A stretch of 64,000 nucleotides of DNA from Gemmatimonadota bacterium (GCA_034521595.1 JAXHMG010000003.1:3008001-3072000); one strand, 5' to 3'; counted from the first letter of the stretch, positions 569-7,853 are shown. Notes: generated by a model from the letters alone, not told the origin. Numbers and translations are program-made.

Positions 569-2367
569 ATCCACCCCCGGTTACGCCCGATATCCTCATC
601 ACGGCGGCGATCACGCTGGGGGCGCTCGTCCTCTTCGTGCTCGATCGCCTTCCGATCGAGGTGGTCGGGCTGATGGTCATGGTCGCGCTCGTGCTGACCG
701 GTGTCGTCACGCCCGCCGAAGGCGTGAGCGGCTTCGCGAGCGAAGCGATCGTCACGATCGCGGCCATGTTCGTCCTGTCGGCCGCGCTCGTGCGCACCGG
801 TGGGGTGGACGTGCTGGGGCGCTTCATCTCGAAGCTGGCGGGCGATAGCGAGTTCCGCTTGTTGGCGATGTCGTTGGCCGTGGTGGTCCCGGCGAGCGCG
901 TTCGTGAACAACACGCCGGTCGTCGTGGTGATGGTTCCGGTGTTGCTCGGTCTGGCGCGGGAACGGGGCGTGCCGGCGTCCCGACTCTTCATGCCGATGT
1001 CGTTCGCCAGCCAAATGGGCGGAACGCTGACCCTCATAGGAACGAGCACGAACCTGCTCGTGGCGGGGCTCGTGCTGGACCTCGGACTTCCCCGTATCGA
1101 GCTTTTCGACATCACGCCTCCGGCCTTGGTGCTCACTGCGCTGGGCGTGCTGTACCTGCTCACGGTGGGTCGAAAGCTCGTTCCGGATCGCGACGGCGAG
1201 GAAGATCTCGAAGAGCGTTACGAGCTCGGAGAGTACCTGTCCGGACTCGAGGTCGGCGAGGAGTCCGACCTCGCGGGGCGGTCGCTCGAGGAGAGCGGTC
1301 TCCGTGAGAAGCACGGGCTCGACGTGCTTGCGATCGAGCGCGACGAAGAACGCATCTTCTTGCCCGACGGATTCGTCGAGATCCGGGAAGGTGACCGACT
1401 CGTGGTGCGTGGCAAGATCACGGGGATCGCCGACGCCGAGTCGGGCGCCGGCCTCCGGATCTCGGGTACCGGATCGACGTTTTCCTCGCCCGAGCTGGAC
1501 GCCGACGAGGGTGAGTCGAGGTACAGCGAGCTCCTCGTTCCTCCTCGGTCACGGGTGGTGGGGGCCTCCCTCGAGGAGCTCAGGTTCCGCGGCCGCTACG
1601 GGGTGCCCGTCGTCGGGATCCGTCGCCACGGAGAGGCGGTGCACGAACCGATGCGGTCGGTGTCGCTGCATGCCGGCGACATCCTGCTGGTGCGCGCGAC
1701 TCCGAGGGATCTGGAACGGATCCGCGATGTGGGCGACCTGGCGCTATTGGGGCCCCTCGACCTGCCCCCCCGGCGGAAGCACAAGCTGCCCCATTCCGTC
1801 GCCGTGATCCTGACGGTCGTCCTGCTCGCCGCTCTCGGCGTCACGACCATCCTCGTCGCTGCCCTGGCCGGTGTCGTGGCGGTGTTCCTCGCAGGATGTC
1901 TCACGCCCGAGGAAGCGTACGAGGACATCGACTGGAAGCCGCTCGTGCTCCTGGGCTCGATCCTGCCACTGGGCATCGCCATGCAGCAGACGGGAGCCGC
2001 CGAGCTCTCGGCGGCCCATTTCTTGACGTTGACCCGGACGTTGGGGCCGACGGGGGTGCTGGTCGCGTTCTACGTGTTCACCAGCCTGCTCACCGAGCTC
2101 ATCAGCAACGCCGCCTCGGCGGTGGTGCTCACGCCGCTCGCGGTCGCGATGGGCCAGAGCCTCGACGTCTCGCCGATGCCCTTCGTCGTCGCCGTCATCC
2201 TGGCGGCATCGAACAGCTTCATCACGCCGGTGGGCTACCAGACCAACACGTTCATCTTCGGGCCCGGCGGCTACCGGTTTTCGGACTTCCTGCGTGTCGG
2301 GGGGCCTCTCTCTCTGCTCTTCGCCGCCGCGGCGGGATTCGTGATCCCGGCCTTCTTCCCGTTCTAG
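565..2367 (+). CDS. SLC13/CitMHS-like anion permease with two TrkA-C (RCK_C) domains
   Basis: ATG 565 overlaps the ppsA stop (ATGA); SAFVNNTPVV, GGTLTLIGTSTNL and SFITPVGYQTN motifs; hydrophilic central region with two RCK_C-like repeats. Confidence 0.9.
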   Translation: MNPPPVTPDILITAAITLGALVLFVLDRLPIEVVGLMVMVALVLTGVVTPAEGVSGFASEAIVTIAAMFVLSAALVRTGGVDVLGRFISKLAGDSEFRLLAMSLAVVVPASAFVNNTPVVVVMVPVLLGLARERGVPASRLFMPMSFASQMGGTLTLIGTSTNLLVAGLVLDLGLPRIELFDITPPALVLTALGVLYLLTVGRKLVPDRDGEEDLEERYELGEYLSGLEVGEESDLAGRSLEESGLREKHGLDVLAIERDEERIFLPDGFVEIREGDRLVVRGKITGIADAESGAGLRISGTGSTFSSPELDADEGESRYSELLVPPRSRVVGASLEELRFRGRYGVPVVGIRRHGEAVHEPMRSVSLHAGDILLVRATPRDLERIRDVGDLALLGPLDLPPRRKHKLPHSVAVILTVVLLAALGVTTILVAALAGVVAVFLAGCLTPEEAYEDIDWKPLVLLGSILPLGIAMQQTGAAELSAAHFLTLTRTLGPTGVLVAFYVFTSLLTELISNAASAVVLTPLAVAMGQSLDVSPMPFVVAVILAASNSFITPVGYQTNTFIFGPGGYRFSDFLRVGGPLSLLFAAAAGFVIPAFFPF

Positions 2368-2529
2368 CCGCTCGGCCGAGCCTGGTGGTCGAGCTGCTGC
2401 TCGATGGTGCGTGCATGCTCGACGATCTCCGGTTCCTCAGACGGCGGTGTGCCCGGCGAAGATCCCGAAGAACCAGGTCGCGATCCGCAGTCGGGGCACC
2501 GGTGCCTCCACGTGCTATCTCTCCTCCCC

Positions 2530-2573
2530 GGACCCATCTCGAGACGTTGTAACCTCGTCCGCGGCCCTCAGGC
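2530..2573. repeat. Left copy of 44-bp exact direct repeat (53 bp with 2 mismatches from 2521)
   Basis: GGACCCATCTCGAGACGTTGTAACCTCGTCCGCGGCCCTCAGGC is identical to 6340-6383. Confidence 0.95.
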
Positions 2574-2819
2574 CGCCTACGCTGCCCGAGATCCTGTGGC
2601 TTCATGCCGGCTCGCCCTTCGCCAGATCCCCGGTCTGGGTTGACGATACCTCGCTAGCCGGTGGACAACCTGCTCGCCGTGACTAAGCCTCTGCTTGTCT
2701 GAGCGTGCACGGAACCATCTGCTCTGAACATTCGATTCTTCTGGTCAGTAGGCGACAATTGGAGCGTACTTGACGTAATAGCTGCTGGTTTCAGTGGCGT
2801 GAGGCCGAGAGTCGTGGAG

Positions 2820-3245
2820 GTGAACGTGGACCAGTTACTCAGGGCCGCCCGCGTGGCGTCTTCGCTTCTTTTGATGGCGATACCAGTAGCTGCAGTTGGG
2901 CAGGAGACCGGACGCTGTAATCCCAACGGTCCTCCGGATGTGGACTCCTTAGCTTTGTCTGTTCCACCTCGTCTCCTAAACGGGGCCGAAGCTAGGGAGG
3001 CGGTGAGGCGCCTGCACCCTGTTGAGTTGCGTCGTTCGGGAAGAGGCGGCAGCACCTGGGTGTCGGTGCTGATCAGCAAGACCGGCGCGGTTCAGGGGGC
3101 ACAAATCCGAGAACGCTCTCAACTCCCCGCCATCGACTCGGCGGCCCTAGCGCTTACCACCGTTCTTGAGTTCGCGCCTGCATATTCAGGTCGTGATCCA
3201 GTGTGCACTTGGTTCGAGTTCCCGGTCCGGTTTCCCGACGGCTAG
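2820..3245 (+). CDS. Secreted stand-alone TonB C-terminal domain protein
   Basis: Signal-like N-terminus (LLLMAIPVAAVG); VSVLISKTGAV...IDSAALA...FAPA...PV..WFEFPVRF resembles TonB_C; start uncertain (2799/2820/2826). Confidence 0.7.
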   Translation: MNVDQLLRAARVASSLLLMAIPVAAVGQETGRCNPNGPPDVDSLALSVPPRLLNGAEAREAVRRLHPVELRRSGRGGSTWVSVLISKTGAVQGAQIRERSQLPAIDSAALALTTVLEFAPAYSGRDPVCTWFEFPVRFPDG

Positions 3246-3329
3246 ATCCAGACCGTCCCGCGTTGCCAGAGTGGCGGCGCTTCCATCGCCCTCTTGAGAG
3301 GGCAGTCCAACAACCACAGGAGGTACAAG

Positions 3330-3521
3330 ATGCGCAGGGTTCTCTTCTTCCTCGGGGTCGCGCTTTTGGGCGCGAACGCAGCTGTCGCCGCCGAGAGCCT
3401 GTCCGTTGACTCTCCGTTCACCTACAAGCAGTGCGGGTATCAGGTGGGTGAAACCCAGGGCTACTGCACCAGTCTCGTCGATGACGACTGTCAGAACGAC
3501 AGCGAGTGCGTCCGCGAGTAG
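3330..3521 (+). CDS. Small secreted Cys-rich peptide (63 aa)
   Basis: Strong RBS AGGAGGT at 3318-3324; Sec-type signal MRRVLFFLGVALLGANAAVAA; mature part has C-x10-C-x7-C-x5-C. Confidence 0.75.
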   Translation: MRRVLFFLGVALLGANAAVAAESLSVDSPFTYKQCGYQVGETQGYCTSLVDDDCQNDSECVRE

Positions 3522-3539
3522 CACTACCGCTTCCCAACT

Positions 3540-3571
3540 GCGGTGCGCCGCTGATTTCAGCGGCGCACCGC
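3540..3571 (+). terminator. Strong hairpin after the peptide gene (attenuator or mRNA-stabilising stem)
   Basis: GCGGTGCGCCGCTG-ATTT-CAGCGGCGCACCGC, perfect 14-bp stem; only a weak U-tract follows. Confidence 0.7.
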
Positions 3572-3630
3572 CTTGCCTTCTCGTGAGACGCGGCAATTGT
3601 CTCGGCCAGCCTACGGAGGTACGAAACGTC

Positions 3631-4140
3631 GTGAAATTCTGGATCGGAGCTTGTCTTATCTTGCTCGGGACCCTGCTTGGACAACTATGGTTGCGTGAAC
3701 TGCGCACCAGAGCTCAGCGGACGTTGGCCGAGAATCCGGCGTTGCCGGGAGACCTGATGCGACATGAGTTTCGCACCTTGGATGGTGATCGCATTCCCTA
3801 CCCTAACCGATGCTGGCATGCGTACATCGCGTCTGTGGCGTGCGGTGCGTGTGCCGACCTTGCGGCGGAATGGATCCGTACTCCTGACCGTGCGTCGGCG
3901 TTTTGGGTGTTTCCGATCAGTGAGAGCGGTAGAGTATCCGAGTTCGCCCAAGAGCACAGGATTGCACGTGACTCGATACGCTTGCTTCCCGTTGAGAGCC
4001 TAGCCGAGGCTGGCTTCTTTGCGACGCCAACGCTTGTAGCAGGTGAAGGCCCAACGATCCGACACTTGACCATCGCTCTGAGTCTGGTCCGACGCAACGC
4101 GGCGGCCGGGGCCTGCAGACCGGGGCCCTCCAGACCATGA
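3631..4140 (+). CDS. Membrane-anchored thioredoxin-fold protein (CxxC)
   Basis: RBS GGAGGT then GTG 3631; N-terminal TM; SVACGAC motif; FATPTLV cis-Pro-like motif. Confidence 0.7.
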   Translation: MKFWIGACLILLGTLLGQLWLRELRTRAQRTLAENPALPGDLMRHEFRTLDGDRIPYPNRCWHAYIASVACGACADLAAEWIRTPDRASAFWVFPISESGRVSEFAQEHRIARDSIRLLPVESLAEAGFFATPTLVAGEGPTIRHLTIALSLVRRNAAAGACRPGPSRP

Positions 4141-5396
4141 GGTTTGTCGGATGCTGCGCCCTGCTATGCGGGGCTTGCTTGTTCGTCGCTTGCCGGTACT
4201 CCGACAGCGCCGAGCCTGGTTTCTGGGTTGAGAATGGCAATCCGAATACGATCCACAACGCTCGACCGGTACATCAGGATACGCTCCTCGCCGAACGGAA
4301 GCTTCGGATTGGATCGCTTGACGGGGACCCCGATCTGACCTTTGGAGAAATCACCTCTCTCGCGGTCCATCCAGACGGTCGCATTTTCGTGTTCGAAGAC
4401 GGGCGAGGCGTCCGGTCTTTTGATCGACACGGCACGTTCGTCGGTTCGGTCGCGGGTTCGGGGGAAGGACCCCGTGAGGTTGATTTCGTACCGTCAATGC
4501 ATGCTACGTCGGTAGGGGGACTGGTCCTCCACGACCTCGGCAACGCGCGCCTAGCGCGCTTCAGGGGGCCAGCGCCCACGTTGATCCCGTTGCGGCGTGT
4601 CATTCGGCAGAGCTACCAAGAGGATGCGATCGCCTCGCATGAGGACGGATCCTTATGGCTCGGTTTCCACCCTCTGCTGGGACCCGACGGAGTCGTAGAA
4701 TACCCTCGCCCGATATACGCGCGGGTAACCGACGAAGGAGAGCTCCGCGACACCATCTACGCCCCGGAATATTTTACAGATGACTGCCCGATATTGAGCG
4801 AGGCTCAGTATCGACGCGGCTTCTGGGACGACCGCCGAGAGCCTTACGTGCCGAAGGTCAAATGGGCATTGGGGCCGCGCGGTACACTCGTCGTAGGCTG
4901 CCCGGCTGAATACACCTTCGACATTTTATCCCCCGATGATGAGGTGCTCCGAGTCACGAGGCCGTATCGGTCCGTAGCCATCTCTGATGAAGAAAAAGAC
5001 TTCCTTGCCGCTCATGCGGGCATTGGAAGCCTTCCCGATGAGAAGCCGGCCTACGCGAGGTTGATTATTCCCGGTGACGGTCGAATTTGGGTTCGGCCGA
5101 GCTTCCCCAGCCGCCGGGTTCCGTTGCCACAGGAGACCTTCGACGCTACGGGCGTGTCGCACACGTGGGTGCCGTCTTCTGCTGGATCACTCGACGTCTT
5201 TTCATCGGACGGCAGATGGCTGGCTGTGGTCAAACTACCCCAGGGGATCGCTTACAGCGGGTTTCCGAACGAGCCCTCGATGGTCATCCGGGGCGACACG
5301 ATTTGGGCCGTGGCTCGAGATTCGTTTGATGTGGAATATGTTGATCGATACGAAGTGCCGCGGTTGAGCGATTTGGATGGTGGATCTGCCAACTGA
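4137..5396 (+). CDS. 6-bladed beta-propeller (NHL/TolB-like) lipoprotein
   Basis: ATGA overlap; lipobox-like LFVAC; LRIGSLDGDPDLTFGEITSLAVHPDGRIFV, GSGEGPREV, LDVFSSDGRWL, RGDTIWAVARDSFDVEYV. Confidence 0.8.
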   Translation: MRFVGCCALLCGACLFVACRYSDSAEPGFWVENGNPNTIHNARPVHQDTLLAERKLRIGSLDGDPDLTFGEITSLAVHPDGRIFVFEDGRGVRSFDRHGTFVGSVAGSGEGPREVDFVPSMHATSVGGLVLHDLGNARLARFRGPAPTLIPLRRVIRQSYQEDAIASHEDGSLWLGFHPLLGPDGVVEYPRPIYARVTDEGELRDTIYAPEYFTDDCPILSEAQYRRGFWDDRREPYVPKVKWALGPRGTLVVGCPAEYTFDILSPDDEVLRVTRPYRSVAISDEEKDFLAAHAGIGSLPDEKPAYARLIIPGDGRIWVRPSFPSRRVPLPQETFDATGVSHTWVPSSAGSLDVFSSDGRWLAVVKLPQGIAYSGFPNEPSMVIRGDTIWAVARDSFDVEYVDRYEVPRLSDLDGGSAN

Positions 5397-5485
5397 TGGC
5401 TAGGCTGCTTGCTTGCATACCCGGCGACGTCCACTCTACTATATTATTAGTAGCGTGGCCCGACCCGTACGCCGCAGGGTGGTAA

Positions 5486-6241
5486 ATGGAAGCAAATCTG
5501 ACCCACCGGACACCCTCCCTCGCGCATGTGAGTCTTCAACTCAGTGGACCGGGGTACGATGGCTGGCCAGTCGTTCAGCGCATGCCAGATCGCGTGGCGG
5601 ACGGGACCGTCTTGATCGCGACCCTTGAAGATCGCCCACCATGGCCCCACAGTCTCCAGTCGACGGTTGGTCTTGTTCGCGAGTTTCGTCGGGCTTTTCC
5701 GGCTCTAGTTATCGGCGCGAAGGTGAATTTCGACGGTAACGAGGAGGCGTTGGAGGCGTTTCGTGTGCTCCAGGCTTCAGGAGTGCGCCTCATGGTGCCA
5801 GGTCAGGTTTCGGAGGCTTCTGTGAGAGGCGCGAACGCGCAAGCCGGCCTATCGGTGTTCGATCTTGAAACATGGCTTATGTCGACCCTTTCGCCTCACG
5901 GTATCCGTGAGACCGGATTGGTGAAGTTGCTGGCACAATTGACCGCCGGGCACAATATCCGCGGAGGCACGGTCGACCGATGTCGTAGGTGGACGAGGAA
6001 GCTGGGCCTTCCTCCGTGGGGCGCTTGGCGAACGGTCGGGAGGCTGGTGCGCGCAGTTGTGCGACTCCAAGTGGGTCCGGGCCCGTTGGCGTACGAGGTG
6101 GGGCAGGACGAGGGGTTCGCTGACGGTCCAACCTTTTCAAGGGCGTGCAGCAGAGTTTTTGGTGAACCTCCTACGCAGCTGCGAACAATGATCGGATGGG
6201 AGTGGCTGTTACATCGGTTCCTGACGCGCCATATGAAATAG
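5486..6241 (+). CDS. Divergent AraC-family HTH regulator
   Basis: C-terminal VGQDEGFADGPTFSRACSRVFGEPPTQLR matches the second AraC HTH; AT-rich stretch upstream (about 5438-5452). Confidence 0.7.
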   Translation: MEANLTHRTPSLAHVSLQLSGPGYDGWPVVQRMPDRVADGTVLIATLEDRPPWPHSLQSTVGLVREFRRAFPALVIGAKVNFDGNEEALEAFRVLQASGVRLMVPGQVSEASVRGANAQAGLSVFDLETWLMSTLSPHGIRETGLVKLLAQLTAGHNIRGGTVDRCRRWTRKLGLPPWGAWRTVGRLVRAVVRLQVGPGPLAYEVGQDEGFADGPTFSRACSRVFGEPPTQLRTMIGWEWLLHRFLTRHMK

Positions 6242-6339
6242 GCTCCCCTCCCAAGCTCCGGCTTCCCATAGGCTGCGCTCATCCCGGATCCTGCATTGCG
6301 AGCATTATGGAGGTGTGATAAACACCGTCGCCCCTCCCG

Positions 6340-6383
6340 GGACCCATCTCGAGACGTTGTAACCTCGTCCGCGGCCCTCAGGC
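6340..6383. repeat. Right copy of the 44-bp direct repeat; includes the stop codon of the AAA ATPase gene
   Basis: Identical to 2530-2573. Confidence 0.95.
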
Positions 6384-7853
6384 GTTCCCCATGCCCCCCA
6401 TCGGATCGAATCCCTGGTATCCCTTGCCTTGCTGGGGATTCTGATGGATGGCCTTGCTGTAGCCGCCGGAGGTGCTGCGGCTGATCCGGCGCTGAGCCAC
6501 GAGCGCTTCGAGCACGAGCTCGCACGCCGCCGCGCGTACGCCGTCGCTGGCTCCGGAAGGCGCCAACCCGACGCTCTCGACGAGGTTGAGGAGGCCCGGC
6601 ACGGTGCTGAACCCCTTCACGCACGCTTTCGAGGCCGAATCCTCGCCGACCTGGATCGCGCCGCCGCCCTCGAAGTACTCGACGATGGAGTCCACGTCGG
6701 CTCCGGCCGCCCGCACGTCGAACGCCTGGGACGAGCCGAGCTGAATGAGCTCACGGGCGATCTTGTCCGCGCCGTGAAGCTCGCCCTCGTACTCGAGCTC
6801 CATCTTGCCCGTGATCGCCGGGATCGCGGCGTAGAGGTCGGTCATGCGCGGGATCGCCGCGTCTTCGCCATGGCGCAGCGCCCGCCGCTCCGCGTTGGAG
6901 ACGACCGTCTCCATGACGGTGATCGGTAGGCGCTGGCTCACGCCCGAGCGCTGGTCGATCCTCTTGTCCTTCCGCGCGAGGAACGCGATCCGCTCCACCG
7001 TCTCCTGCACGAAGTCGGGGATCTCGACCGGTAGGCCGTCGCGGTCCGTCCACGCTTCCTGCTCGGTGATGGAGGTGCCGGTCTCGAGCTCTTCGGGGTA
7101 GTGCGTCCGGATCTCGGCGCCGATCCGGTCCTTGAGCGGTGTGATGATCTTGCCCCGGGCCGTGTAGTCTTCGGGGTTGGCGGTGAACACCATCAGGAGG
7201 TCGAGCGCCAGCCGGATGGGGTATCCCTTCACCTGCACGTCCCCCTCCTGGAGGATGTTGAAGAGGCCCACCTGGATCTTGCCCGCGAGATCGGGCAGCT
7301 CGTTGATGGCGAACACGCCCCGATTGGCGCGCGGGAGCAGTCCGTAGTGGATGGTGAGCTCGTCCGCCAGGATGTGCCCACCCCGGGCCGCCTTGATGGG
7401 GTCGACGTCGCCGATGACGTCGGCGATGGTCACGTCCGGCGTGGCGAGCTTCTCCACGTAGCGGTGCTCGCGGTCGACCCATTCGATGGGCGCGTCGTCA
7501 CCGTGCTCCTCGACCAGAAGCTTCCCGTGCTTCGAGATCGGCGCCAGCGGATCGTCGTTCACCTCGCTGCCGGCCAGGATCGGGATCCGCTCGTCGAGGA
7601 GCGAGACGAGCTGCCGCAGGATCCGGCTCTTCGCCTGGCCCCGTAGGCCGAGAAGGATGAAATCGTGCCGCGCGAGCACCGCGTTGACGATCTCCGGAAC
7701 CACCGAATCATCGTATCCCTGGATGCCCGGAAAGAGCGGCTCCCCCGCTTGCAGCTTCCGAACGAGGTTCTGGCGCATCTCGTCCTTGACCGTGCGGCTC
7801 GCGTAGCCCGACGCCTTCAGCGCGCCGAGGGTGGTGGGGTGTGATTCGCTCAT
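6378..7853 (-). CDS. Magnesium-chelatase-subunit-I-like AAA+ ATPase
   Basis: GLRGQAKS Walker-A variant; RYVEKLATPD, HYGLLPRANRGVFAINELPDL, FTANPEDYTARGKIITPLKDRIG. Confidence 0.85.
   Translation of the reverse strand: MSESHPTTLGALKASGYASRTVKDEMRQNLVRKLQAGEPLFPGIQGYDDSVVPEIVNAVLARHDFILLGLRGQAKSRILRQLVSLLDERIPILAGSEVNDDPLAPISKHGKLLVEEHGDDAPIEWVDREHRYVEKLATPDVTIADVIGDVDPIKAARGGHILADELTIHYGLLPRANRGVFAINELPDLAGKIQVGLFNILQEGDVQVKGYPIRLALDLLMVFTANPEDYTARGKIITPLKDRIGAEIRTHYPEELETGTSITEQEAWTDRDGLPVEIPDFVQETVERIAFLARKDKRIDQRSGVSQRLPITVMETVVSNAERRALRHGEDAAIPRMTDLYAAIPAITGKMELEYEGELHGADKIARELIQLGSSQAFDVRAAGADVDSIVEYFEGGGAIQVGEDSASKACVKGFSTVPGLLNLVESVGLAPSGASDGVRAAACELVLEALVAQRRISRSTSGGYSKAIHQNPQQGKGYQGFDPMGGMGNA

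Follow-up and report, generated by a model that had tools for sequence, protein, structure and literature searches.

Do five neighbouring genes in a Gemmatimonadota-type chromosome form a dedicated system for a secreted, cysteine-containing peptide? The window, by which we mean the whole 64,000-nt stretch of DNA that was analysed, encodes in close succession a TonB_C-domain protein, a short peptide whose gene is followed by a hairpin, a putatively membrane-anchored protein with a CGAC motif, a propeller lipoprotein, and an AraC-type protein (Table 1). A sequence-only reading of this DNA had combined them into one system, in which a disulfide-bonded extracellular peptide is served by its own folding catalyst and by a propeller that acts as receptor or immunity protein. 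The gene calls and envelope destinations given in that reading are borne out by our analysis; the linkage between the genes fares differently.

Table 1. Features of the locus, in window coordinates
Feature	Position	Strand	Details
Direct repeat, left copy	2518..2573	.	56 nt; bounds islet
Stand-alone TonB_C-domain protein, predicted secreted	2799..3245	+	148 aa from GTG 2799; GC3 0.64
GGAGGTAC Shine-Dalgarno context	3319..3326	+	ahead of peptide ATG
Prepeptide, Sec-type signal and ∼43-aa acidic mature part	3330..3521	+	63 aa; four invariant Cys, CGYQVG motif
Stem-loop, perfect, 14 bp, 4-nt loop	3540..3571	+	19 nt past peptide stop codon
Second GGAGGTAC	3615..3622	+	8 nt ahead of GTG 3631 (CGAC gene)
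Orphan membrane-anchored CGAC protein	3631..4140	+	169 aa, GTG start; stop overlaps propeller start (ATGA)
Lipoprotein, NHL-type six-bladed beta-propeller (predicted)	4137..5396	+	419 aa
Divergent AraC-type HTH protein, N-terminal domain of no named family	5486..6241	+	251 aa
Direct repeat, right copy	6328..6383	.	56 nt; overlaps stop and last codon of − strand ATPase gene 6378–7853

A repeat-bounded islet

The five ORFs lie on the same strand between two copies of a 56-nt direct repeat, separated by intergenic gaps of 84–109 nt and one 4-nt overlap. The repeat copies are 95% identical to each other, and similarity stops sharply on both sides of them. Their exact 44-nt core occurs only twice in the 64 kb; a match arose in none of 100 shuffles. 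GC content is 0.58–0.62 inside the repeats and 0.66–0.70 outside. Likewise, GC3 in four of the islet genes (0.64, 0.62, 0.65, and 0.63) falls below that of five flanking genes (0.84–0.92); crude gene calls outside the islet average 0.83 (sd 0.08, n = 42). The islet's neighbours are a CitMHS/TrkA_C transporter gene and, on the other side, an AAA-type ATPase gene that faces it with its 3′ end. Flanking direct repeats and atypical composition, two hallmarks of an integrative element or genomic islet, are both present; a further hallmark is an integrase or transposase of its own, and Pfam and NCBIfam profile searches identified none among the islet proteins. Window positions 2518–6383 apparently constitute a ∼3.8-kb laterally acquired islet. 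We infer the insertion from repeats and composition only, because an empty site was not seen in a relative. The locus is a clear example, from a high-GC genome, of an islet of this size that lacks an integrase and is delimited by 56-nt repeats.

None of the five proteins matched a PADLOC anti-phage family at E ≤ 0.01. They also match no enzyme family in Pfam or NCBIfam, which agrees with the earlier observation that no classical RiPP-modifying enzyme stands beside the precursor.

The outermost genes encode a free TonB_C domain and a putative regulator, both named in the sequence-only reading; the former label is secure and the latter is weaker. Residues 74–145 of the first protein match PF03544 (36.2 bits, E = 8.2e-9, cut-off 24.6), and the TIGR01352 match also clears its cut-off (30.2 versus 27.1 bits). 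GTG 2826 is the likelier start codon because GGAGG precedes it at 2816–2820. The N-terminus, as read from the sequence, is hydrophobic, and this leader runs straight into the C-domain. Full-length TonB energy transducers carry an N-terminal membrane anchor with an ExbB/D-interacting helix, followed by a Pro-rich spacer; the 148-aa islet protein has neither this anchor helix nor the spacer. The AraC-type protein matches HTH_18 over residues 168–234 with 25.9 bits (E = 1.2e-5), which is under the cut-off of 33.6, and its matches to NCBIfam AraC, QhpR, and SoxS are weak (E 0.04–0.2).

The four-Cys peptide and the CGAC protein

Every element ascribed to the 63-aa peptide by the sequence-only reading is present: the ORF, the Sec-type signal, the acidic mature part, and the Cys spacing. 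The cysteines at residues 35, 46, 54, and 60 give C-x10-C-x7-C-x5-C, and cleavage after AVA20, the inferred site, would leave a mature part with nine acidic and two basic residues. GC content by codon position (0.61/0.42/0.81) gives a clear coding signature. The GC3 of 0.81 stands apart from the 0.62–0.65 of the other islet genes, an offset that may reflect a different history or simply the small number of codons (64). The peptide has two relatives among 1.84 billion representatives (E 4.6e-6 and 4.5e-4), and a profile search for further members found none beyond these three sequences. Alignment of the three shows 18 invariant columns that include all four cysteines and the whole of CGYQVG, and it defines the family pattern K-x-CGYQVG-x3-G-x-C-x7-C-x2-D-x2-C. 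This conservation indicates that the peptide gene is real and belongs to a very rare family. The islet peptide probably carries two disulfides. A Pfam scan of 3330–3521 at E ≤ 1 returned 0 families. Like other small, disulfide-rich peptides and proteins that bacteria secrete and produce without modifying enzymes, the islet peptide combines a Sec signal and four invariant cysteines with the lack of a RiPP enzyme; it differs from them in having only three members and no assignable family, fold, or activity. We regard these sequences as a previously undescribed and extremely rare family of putatively secreted four-Cys peptides.

The perfect 14-bp hairpin reported behind the peptide gene was reproduced by RNAfold, which paired 14 bp; its arms (3540–3554 and 3557–3571) are 100% complementary. 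An 82-nt stretch containing it folds at −40.6 kcal/mol (z = −5.4), a value equalled by 0 of 200 shuffles. No T-run follows the hairpin and a terminator scan did not call it. Terminator, attenuator, and mRNA stabiliser are candidate roles. As the sequence-only reading had stated, GGAGGTAC precedes the start codons of both the peptide and the CGAC genes. One further copy brings the total in the 64 kb to three, a count that is not above chance (at least three copies in 16 of 100 shuffles).

The CGAC protein is more difficult to place. Its single CxxC is the CGAC motif, with a T-P pair ∼57 residues on. TlpA-like proteins follow the pattern F-x-x-x-D-G ... CxxC ... T-P, against which the islet protein reads F-x-x-x-D-G ... 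CGAC ... T-P. A word-indexed, non-exhaustive search recovered only the protein itself among 498 candidates, 0 Pfam and 0 NCBIfam families matched at E ≤ 1, and phmmer against the PDB gave as its sole match an unrelated CheX chain (E = 2). Single-sequence AF2 modelling reached a pLDDT of 44.7, with confidence in helix 3–34 alone; a second helix (72–83) lies right behind the CGAC motif, at pLDDT <50, and Foldseek returned 0 matches to the model at E ≤ 0.001. Some of its ESM Atlas neighbours (scores 0.91–0.93) carry Thioredoxin_2, Redoxin, or AhpC-TSA domains; these neighbours have 147–158 features in common with it where 170 are expected. GC content by codon position (0.62/0.56/0.62) gives no clear coding signature.

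The motifs and the language-model neighbours make a periplasm-facing thioredoxin-like oxidoreductase with a TlpA/ResA-like fold plausible. In common with TlpA, ResA, and CcmG oxidoreductases, the protein would have an anchor helix, a single CxxC that leads into a further helix, and a T-P near the place of the cis-Pro loop. It differs from them in its CGAC active site and in lacking a profile match, a homolog, or a confident model. The ORF could also be fast-evolving, decaying, or something other than a thioredoxin. Of the earlier description as a membrane-anchored CGAC/TP thioredoxin-fold protein, the anchor helix, the CGAC, the T-P, and the ATGA overlap stand; the fold itself was recovered neither by profiles nor by structure prediction.

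The propeller and its relatives

The CGAC stop codon and the propeller start codon overlap as ATGA (4137–4140), and the protein that follows is the six-bladed propeller, probably a lipoprotein, that had been proposed. Its AF2 model is confident (pLDDT 90.5, pTM 0.88). The top PDB matches in Foldseek are NHL domains (E 4.8e-11 to 1e-8, TMt 0.56–0.69, TMq 0.42–0.52), and the Bacteroides proteins BF0058 (PDB 4raa) and BVU_1028 (3s9j) also appear among the matches. The N-terminal sequence runs ...LFVAC19; across 24 sequences, this candidate lipobox cysteine is conserved at a level of 90% or higher. We found 43 homologs. PF17170 is matched by seven of 24 family members and NHL by five; the window's own propeller reaches no Pfam cut-off and does not match PF17170 at E ≤ 1. 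The model identifies the protein as a six-bladed NHL-type propeller; it is probably a lipoprotein and is distantly tied to PF17170. With PF17170/NHL propeller lipoproteins such as BF0058 and BVU_1028 it shares the fold and a lipoprotein-like N-terminus with Cys19; unlike them, it is 419 aa long (NHL domains are ∼280 aa, and TMq reaches only 0.42–0.52), scores below Pfam cut-offs, and belongs to a family expanded in, and essentially confined to, the Gemmatimonadota. Of the 63 related loci, 62 are labelled with that lineage, which also speaks for the Gemmatimonadota-type host.

These 63 loci, with 187 neighbouring genes and 727,585 nt of scanned sequence, provide the comparison on which the linkage can be judged. 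The sequence-only reading had said that it would fail if homologous propeller loci lacked an upstream Cys peptide, and for the propeller this is what we found: 0 of the 63 carry one. Searches of all 63 with the four other islet proteins (peptide, CGAC, TonB_C, and regulator) found no relative (best E 0.026–1.4 by blastp and 0.36–2.6 by phmmer). Among the propeller loci the CGYQVG-type motif is confined to the window, the HMM built from the peptide alignment gave a best E of 2.7, and the 727,585 nt contain no credible analogous small ORF with a signal and four cysteines. Just one of the 187 neighbours is a redoxin, encoded on the other strand, and none is a TonB_C protein. Five of 80 small neighbours contain CxxC or at least four cysteines, none of them redoxin-like or a signal-bearing peptide. 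Neighbours were assigned to Pfam families at thresholds of 1e-5 and 1e-8; the lack of AraC-like neighbours rests on blastp and phmmer, because these thresholds would let an HTH_18 match of the strength seen in the islet protein go undetected. As judged from the propeller loci, the five-gene combination appears to be a one-off and not a conserved system, and the proposed unit of peptide, folding catalyst, and receptor is not upheld.

Elsewhere, propeller genes occur in many unrelated contexts. They form tandem arrays of at least two copies at 29 of 58 loci, and lie beside ECF sigma factor genes at eight of 63 loci and beside M49 peptidase genes at seven.

Weighing the explanations

We consider it reasonably probable that the locus is a repeat-bounded, acquired islet in which four envelope-directed proteins and one regulator form a one-off combination. 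A dedicated system would go further: the peptide, acting as a signal, metal binder, or antimicrobial, would be folded by a catalyst reserved for it, the CGAC protein, and the propeller would serve as its receptor or confer immunity to it. The tight spacing, common orientation, and envelope direction of the genes fit such a system, as do their movement together within one repeat pair, a real and conserved peptide gene with a strong hairpin behind it, and the GGAGGTAC context that the peptide and CGAC genes share. It is nonetheless unlikely, since the "system" rests on one locus: none of the 63 propeller loci encodes anything related or analogous to the peptide or the CGAC protein, and propeller genes, often in tandem, keep varied company. 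The CGAC protein is moreover an orphan with a candidate fold only, and the PADLOC search was negative. A peptide-centred conserved system, approached from the side of the two peptide relatives, stays conceivable. Quite doubtful is the boldest version, a mobilisable, self-contained cassette in which a ribosomally made, enzyme-free disulfide peptide of a novel class, the CGYQVG family, is exported by Sec, oxidised or proof-read by a private CGAC thioredoxin that works as a split NHLRC2-like unit with the propeller, and switched by the AraC-type protein, with partners that evolve or swap too fast for a propeller-centred comparison.

A narrower reading couples only the CGAC protein and the propeller, as a split NHLRC2-like architecture acting on envelope proteins, with the peptide, TonB_C protein, and regulator as unrelated cargo. 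The ATGA overlap suggests translational coupling and the propeller is NHL-type. Fusions of Trx-like and NHL-propeller domains, in which the active-site motif faces the propeller, occur across eukaryotes and prokaryotes according to the account in PMC6107167. NHLRC2 and its prokaryotic homologs, as described there, likewise join a Trx-like unit (putative in the islet) to an NHL-type propeller; they are fused and carry CC(I/V)NC, whereas the islet has adjacent, overlapping genes for envelope-located proteins and CGAC. Several points make this reading improbable: the Trx fold is putative, no sequence relationship between NHLRC2 and the islet pair is demonstrated, no NHLRC2 chain appears among the 50 Foldseek matches listed for the propeller, and the pairing is absent from the 63 related loci, where the lone redoxin neighbour lies on the other strand. 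The opposite extreme, that the five genes are functionally unrelated, small fast-evolving envelope genes gathered in a variable or imported segment, with the CGAC ORF perhaps decaying or non-functional, is a serious possibility that falls somewhat short of an even chance. The comparison supports no pairing, the orphan CGAC protein comes from an ORF whose coding signature is weak, and the GC3 of the peptide is unlike that of its neighbours; against this, the overlap and the 84–109 nt gaps look operon-like, a regulator gene sits within the same repeat-bounded unit, and chance would rarely produce an open frame of 244 codons at 60% GC (∼4e-4 per frame, a rough estimate).

The sequence-only reading had also likened the locus to the NVEALA-type loci of Bacteroidota, in which a small NVEALA-domain peptide is encoded next to a six-bladed propeller lipoprotein of the PF17170 type; PF17170 (DUF5128) is presumably the propeller family that accompanies NVEALA peptides. 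The islet likewise has a small peptide gene near a propeller lipoprotein from the neighbourhood of PF17170, a family matched by some of the propeller's relatives, and BF0058 and BVU_1028 are Bacteroides exported proteins. However, the islet peptide has no NVEALA domain, given that the Pfam scan at E ≤ 1 came back empty for it, and we reject assignment to this class on that ground. The propeller misses PF17170 at E ≤ 1 as at E ≤ 0.01, the phylum differs, and the arrangement does not recur. The literature searched yielded no account of the make-up of NVEALA-type loci. A Gemmatimonadota version of these loci is hardly credible.

Within the favoured reading of a one-off acquired islet, the likeliest step is that the peptide would be exported and then oxidised in the periplasm. 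Next in rank, the hairpin would end or stabilise a short, abundant peptide transcript. Third comes a possible split Trx-plus-NHL-like pairing of the CxxC protein with the propeller, acting on envelope substrates of which the peptide is one candidate; lowest in rank, the AraC-type protein might control the islet. Were the linkage true, the islet would represent a minimal peptide system invisible to RiPP miners and would offer an initial way into what a large family of Gemmatimonadota propeller lipoproteins does. Independently of the linkage, that family is NHL-type, often arranged in tandem, and recurrently found beside ECF sigma and M49 genes, not beside peptides or redoxins.

Boundaries, composition and origin of the islet

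Five open reading frames, all on the + strand between 2799 and 6241, make up the islet, and a 56-nt direct repeat stands on either side of it (Table). GC content is 0.58-0.62 within the islet, compared with 0.66-0.70 outside. GC at third codon positions (GC3) is 0.64 in the TonB_C gene, 0.62 in the CGAC gene, 0.65 in the propeller gene and 0.63 in the AraC-like gene, compared with 0.84-0.92 in the five flanking genes; its mean elsewhere in the window is 0.83 (sd 0.08, n = 42 crude gene calls that include some wrong-frame picks). The repeat occurs within the 64 kb only as these two copies, and similarity ends sharply on either side of both. From these sequence features we infer that the block is a unit of ∼3.8 kb that was acquired laterally. 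The donor was probably another Gemmatimonadota lineage with lower GC, proposed because propeller relatives occur there. As an element, the islet itself is of a known kind.

Coordinates of the islet features (window positions)
Feature	Position	Strand	Description
Direct repeat, 56 nt	2518-2573 (left); 6328-6383 (right)		copies 95% identical, 44-nt core exact
TonB_C gene	2799-3245	+	PF03544, 36.2 bits (cut-off 24.6); TIGR01352 also above its curated cut-off
GGAGGTAC	3319-3326; 3615-3622		before the peptide ATG and before GTG 3631; third copy elsewhere in the window
Peptide gene	3330-3521	+	63 aa: MRRVLFFLGVALLGANAAVA, then a 43-residue part
Stem-loop	3540-3554 and 3557-3571 (arms)		perfect arms; 14 bp, 4-nt loop
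CGAC gene	3631-4140	+	169 aa; N-terminal helix, CGAC motif, later T-P
Propeller gene	4137-5396	+	
AraC-like gene	5486-6241	+	one weak AraC-type HTH: HTH_18, 25.9 bits (cut-off 33.6)

Several searches bear on the nature of the islet and its repeats. Neither Pfam nor NCBIfam finds an integrase or transposase among the islet proteins, none of the five matches a PADLOC model, and the islet DNA has no match among plasmids. A tRNA scan of the window returned 0 genes, which rules out reading the repeat as a tRNA end. No Rfam family falls on 2300-6500, where the sole hit is a sub-threshold sX6 (16 bits; gathering score 40). Readings of the repeats as an integron cassette or a Xer/dif-type element were dropped, as the repeat lacks palindromic structure. 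The right copy takes in the last codon and the stop codon of an ATPase gene (6378-7853, - strand), but its folding is unremarkable (z = +0.63), and a role as the terminator of that gene was likewise rejected. The ATPase (491 aa) has only sub-threshold AAA-type matches (Sigma54_activat, AAA_5, bpMoxR and Mg_chelatase); its gene looks like a conserved host gene, with its 3′ end as the insertion point of the islet. On the left, ∼430 nt (2368-2798) separate a transporter gene from the first gene of the islet; they contain no convincing ORF and hold the left repeat plus an islet leader of ∼225 nt. A sigma-70 promoter scan gave 0 sites, and this interval has neither such a site nor an Rfam match.

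The outermost two genes encode ordinary proteins. The TonB_C domain stands behind a hydrophobic leader, and GTG 2826 is the likelier start of its gene because GGAGG lies at 2816-2820. The AraC regulator of the sequence-only reading has one weak AraC-type HTH, an HTH_18 match that stays below its cut-off (Table).

A rare four-cysteine peptide family

The peptide gene has GC contents of 0.61/0.42/0.81 at the three codon positions, a pattern classically seen in the coding sequence of high-GC genomes. The 43-residue part of its product contains nine acidic and two basic residues, and the four cysteines, at precursor positions 35, 46, 54 and 60, are spaced C-x10-C-x7-C-x5-C. An exhaustive phmmer search of 1.84 billion representatives found just two relatives, P0046 (61 aa, E = 4.6e-6) and P0047 (70 aa, E = 4.5e-4), and no further member came from a profile search of 5.8 billion clusters (three proteins among 36 candidates). 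In the alignment of these three sequences (A2), the leader is hydrophobic yet variable, while K33, CGYQVG (35-40), G44, C46, C54, D57 and C60 are invariant. Because of the coding signature, the two relatives and the invariant cysteines, the peptide is, judged by sequence, a real, conserved and very rare family of small, predicted secreted proteins with four fixed cysteines. This CGYQVG family is undescribed within reach of these searches, and it belongs to a known kind, the small secreted disulfide proteins.

Neither Pfam (E ≤ 1) nor tblastn searches of plasmids and phages gave a match to the peptide. The ESM Atlas offered no lead (best feature score 0.83, structural TM ≤ 0.50, Atlas model pLDDT 0.46). 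A Ca-binding, LDL-A-like reading of C-x7-C-x2-D-x2-C was dropped, given the lack of a Pfam match and an acidic run that is not conserved in A2. The peptide GC3 of 0.81 is near that of host genes and differs from the 0.62-0.65 of the other four islet genes; possible reasons for this offset are a different history, strong selection on codons and small-sample noise.

The stem-loop behind the peptide gene is unusually stable: an 82-nt stretch containing it folds at -40.6 kcal/mol (z = -5.4), a stability that none of 200 shuffles attains. No T-run follows, and a terminator scan made no call there. The peptide and CGAC genes had been said to share a ribosome-binding context, and GGAGGTAC does precede both starts; its count in the window is not above chance, however, with at least three copies in 16 of 100 shuffles.

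CGAC protein and NHL-type propeller

The stop codon of the CGAC gene overlaps the ATG of the propeller gene (ATGA). The CGAC gene itself, with GC contents of 0.62/0.56/0.62 by codon position, has no clear coding signature. A word-indexed search of 5.8 billion clusters recovered the CGAC protein only as itself, Pfam and NCBIfam gave no match, and phmmer against PDB sequences found nothing relevant (a CheX chain only, E = 2). An AlphaFold2 model built without an alignment has a pLDDT of 44.7 and is confident only for helix 3-34; Foldseek with this low-confidence model returned noise (best E 2.3). In the ESM Atlas, neighbours at 0.91-0.93 include clusters with Thioredoxin_2, Redoxin or AhpC-TSA in 10-69% of their members; these clusters share 147-158 features with the CGAC protein, fewer than the 170 typical for true family members. 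The layout of the protein (F-x-x-x-D-G, a hydrophobic strand, a CGAC-helix, then T-P) fits the TlpA/ResA-like pattern. The motifs and N-terminal helix behind the proposed CGAC/TP thioredoxin-fold protein thus stand, while neither a profile nor a confident model backs the fold, which is plausible.

The six-bladed propeller, by comparison, was recognized correctly. Homologs of it number 43 at E ≤ 0.001, of which the best is 56% identical, and the alignment-based model is confident (pLDDT 90.5, pTM 0.88). The best PDB matches listed are NHL domains, namely Thin (6d69, E = 4.8e-11), Brat and TRIM2/3/71; also among the matches listed are the Bacteroides exported proteins BF0058 (4raa) and BVU_1028 (3s9j, TMq 0.52), streptogramin B lyase, PAL and the PknD sensor domain. 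PF17170 (DUF5128, a six-bladed propeller) is found in 7 of 24 family members and NHL in 5 of 24; the window's own propeller matches neither. At least 90% of the 24 aligned sequences keep Cys19, consistent with a lipoprotein. The predicted structure is that of an NHL-type propeller, and the protein, a putative lipoprotein, adds a member to a known fold class.

A report on NHLRC2 describes, in this protein and its prokaryotic homologs, a Trx-like domain combined with an NHL propeller, the active-site motif facing the propeller (PMC6107167). By analogy, the CGAC protein and propeller, which would be produced together, might be a split counterpart of this architecture, with the peptide as one possible substrate. 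Sec would export the peptide, in which two disulfides would then form in the periplasm; its short transcript would be ended or stabilised by the hairpin, and the AraC-type protein would control the islet.

Propeller loci in other genomes and competing readings

When 185,579 species-representative genomes were scanned once with the propeller alignment, 63 loci emerged, of which 62 bear titles from Gemmatimonadota lineages and one is labelled Polyangiales. Relatives of the TonB_C, CGAC and AraC-like proteins are absent from all 63 at E ≤ 1e-3, and for the four partner proteins up to E = 10 there is only noise (best E-values 0.059, 1.4, 1.2 and 0.026 with blastp, 0.36-2.6 with phmmer). In six-frame translations of the loci, CG[YFW]Q[VIL]G occurs in the window only, and the best hit of the A2 HMM has E = 2.7. 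A scan for small ORFs (35-120 aa, basic N-terminus, hydrophobic run, at least four Cys) recovers the window peptide; over 727,585 nt of loci it yielded 10 start variants at five places, all Arg/Ser/Pro-rich and of wrong-frame appearance.

Propeller copies were counted from a crude gene call, whose GC3 filter dropped the propeller at five loci. The other 58 carry 115 propeller genes, with two or more copies in 29 loci, often in tandem. Neighbours were defined as the 187 non-propeller genes within two positions and <1.5 kb of a propeller gene. Pfam scans (128 at 1e-5 and 59 at 1e-8, both too strict to catch a match as weak as that of the HTH in the window) found 0 TonB_C or HTH_18 domains and one redoxin (L053:8552-9721, opposite strand), to which the CGAC protein has no BLASTP similarity (best E 3.3). 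Among 80 small neighbours (≤260 aa), five have a CxxC or at least four Cys; none is redoxin-like or secreted-peptide-like.

Taken together, we lean towards an acquired envelope islet that carries a real peptide and is not a conserved system. The sequence-only reading had instead proposed a dedicated system of peptide, folding catalyst and receptor or immunity propeller. Its five co-oriented genes, four-Cys prepeptide, hairpin and CGAC/propeller overlap are all present in the sequence. The propeller side of that system is refuted on its own terms, because no peptide relative or credible Cys-peptide analogue occurs at any of the 63 loci. We regard such a dedicated system as unlikely. The peptide-propeller co-fold score, 0.01 against a mark of 0.32 with the partner's own fold uncertain, speaks neither for nor against it. 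A Trx-propeller pair that is independent of the peptide would accommodate the overlapping genes; CGAC relatives are missing from the 63 propeller loci, and we consider this reading equally doubtful. These readings overlap. We think it quite improbable that the islet is a mobile cassette for an enzyme-free disulfide peptide whose Trx and NHL partners form a split pair.

The suggested resemblance to NVEALA-type loci fails on the peptide, which lacks an NVEALA domain (Pfam, E ≤ 1). Literature searches returned nothing under NVEALA or DUF5128 and nothing related on six-bladed beta-propellers in Gemmatimonadota. Unlike RiPP clusters, the islet has no modifying enzyme, as had been noted from the sequence, and it is not a RiPP cluster for that reason.

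The other propeller loci have recurrent arrangements of their own. Tandem arrays reach 5-6 paralogs (L001:1821-8021, L009, L058 and others). The sole locus pairing a redoxin with a propeller (L053:2444-9721, 25% identical) has a TonB-dependent receptor gene upstream and encodes a 389-aa AhpC-TSA/Redoxin protein downstream on the opposite strand; TonB-dependent receptor genes occur at 4 of 63 loci (L032, L053, L058 and L062). Genes for ECF sigma factors lie beside the propeller at eight of the 63 (L014, L016, L017, L018, L019, L037, L039 and L043). They recur with a distant propeller subfamily (e.g., L017:4325-7206), where the next gene encodes ∼150 aa and, at several loci, a further gene encodes ∼200 aa, with no Pfam match at the thresholds used; this arrangement may be an envelope-signalling module. 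Peptidase_M49-like genes lie directly upstream of the propeller gene at 7 of 63 loci (L027, L028, L031, L034, L035, L044 and L048). Large ankyrin-repeat proteins are encoded near propellers in several Longimicrobiales MAGs (L009:2457-3968, L022:11950-13074 and L040:9963-13073).
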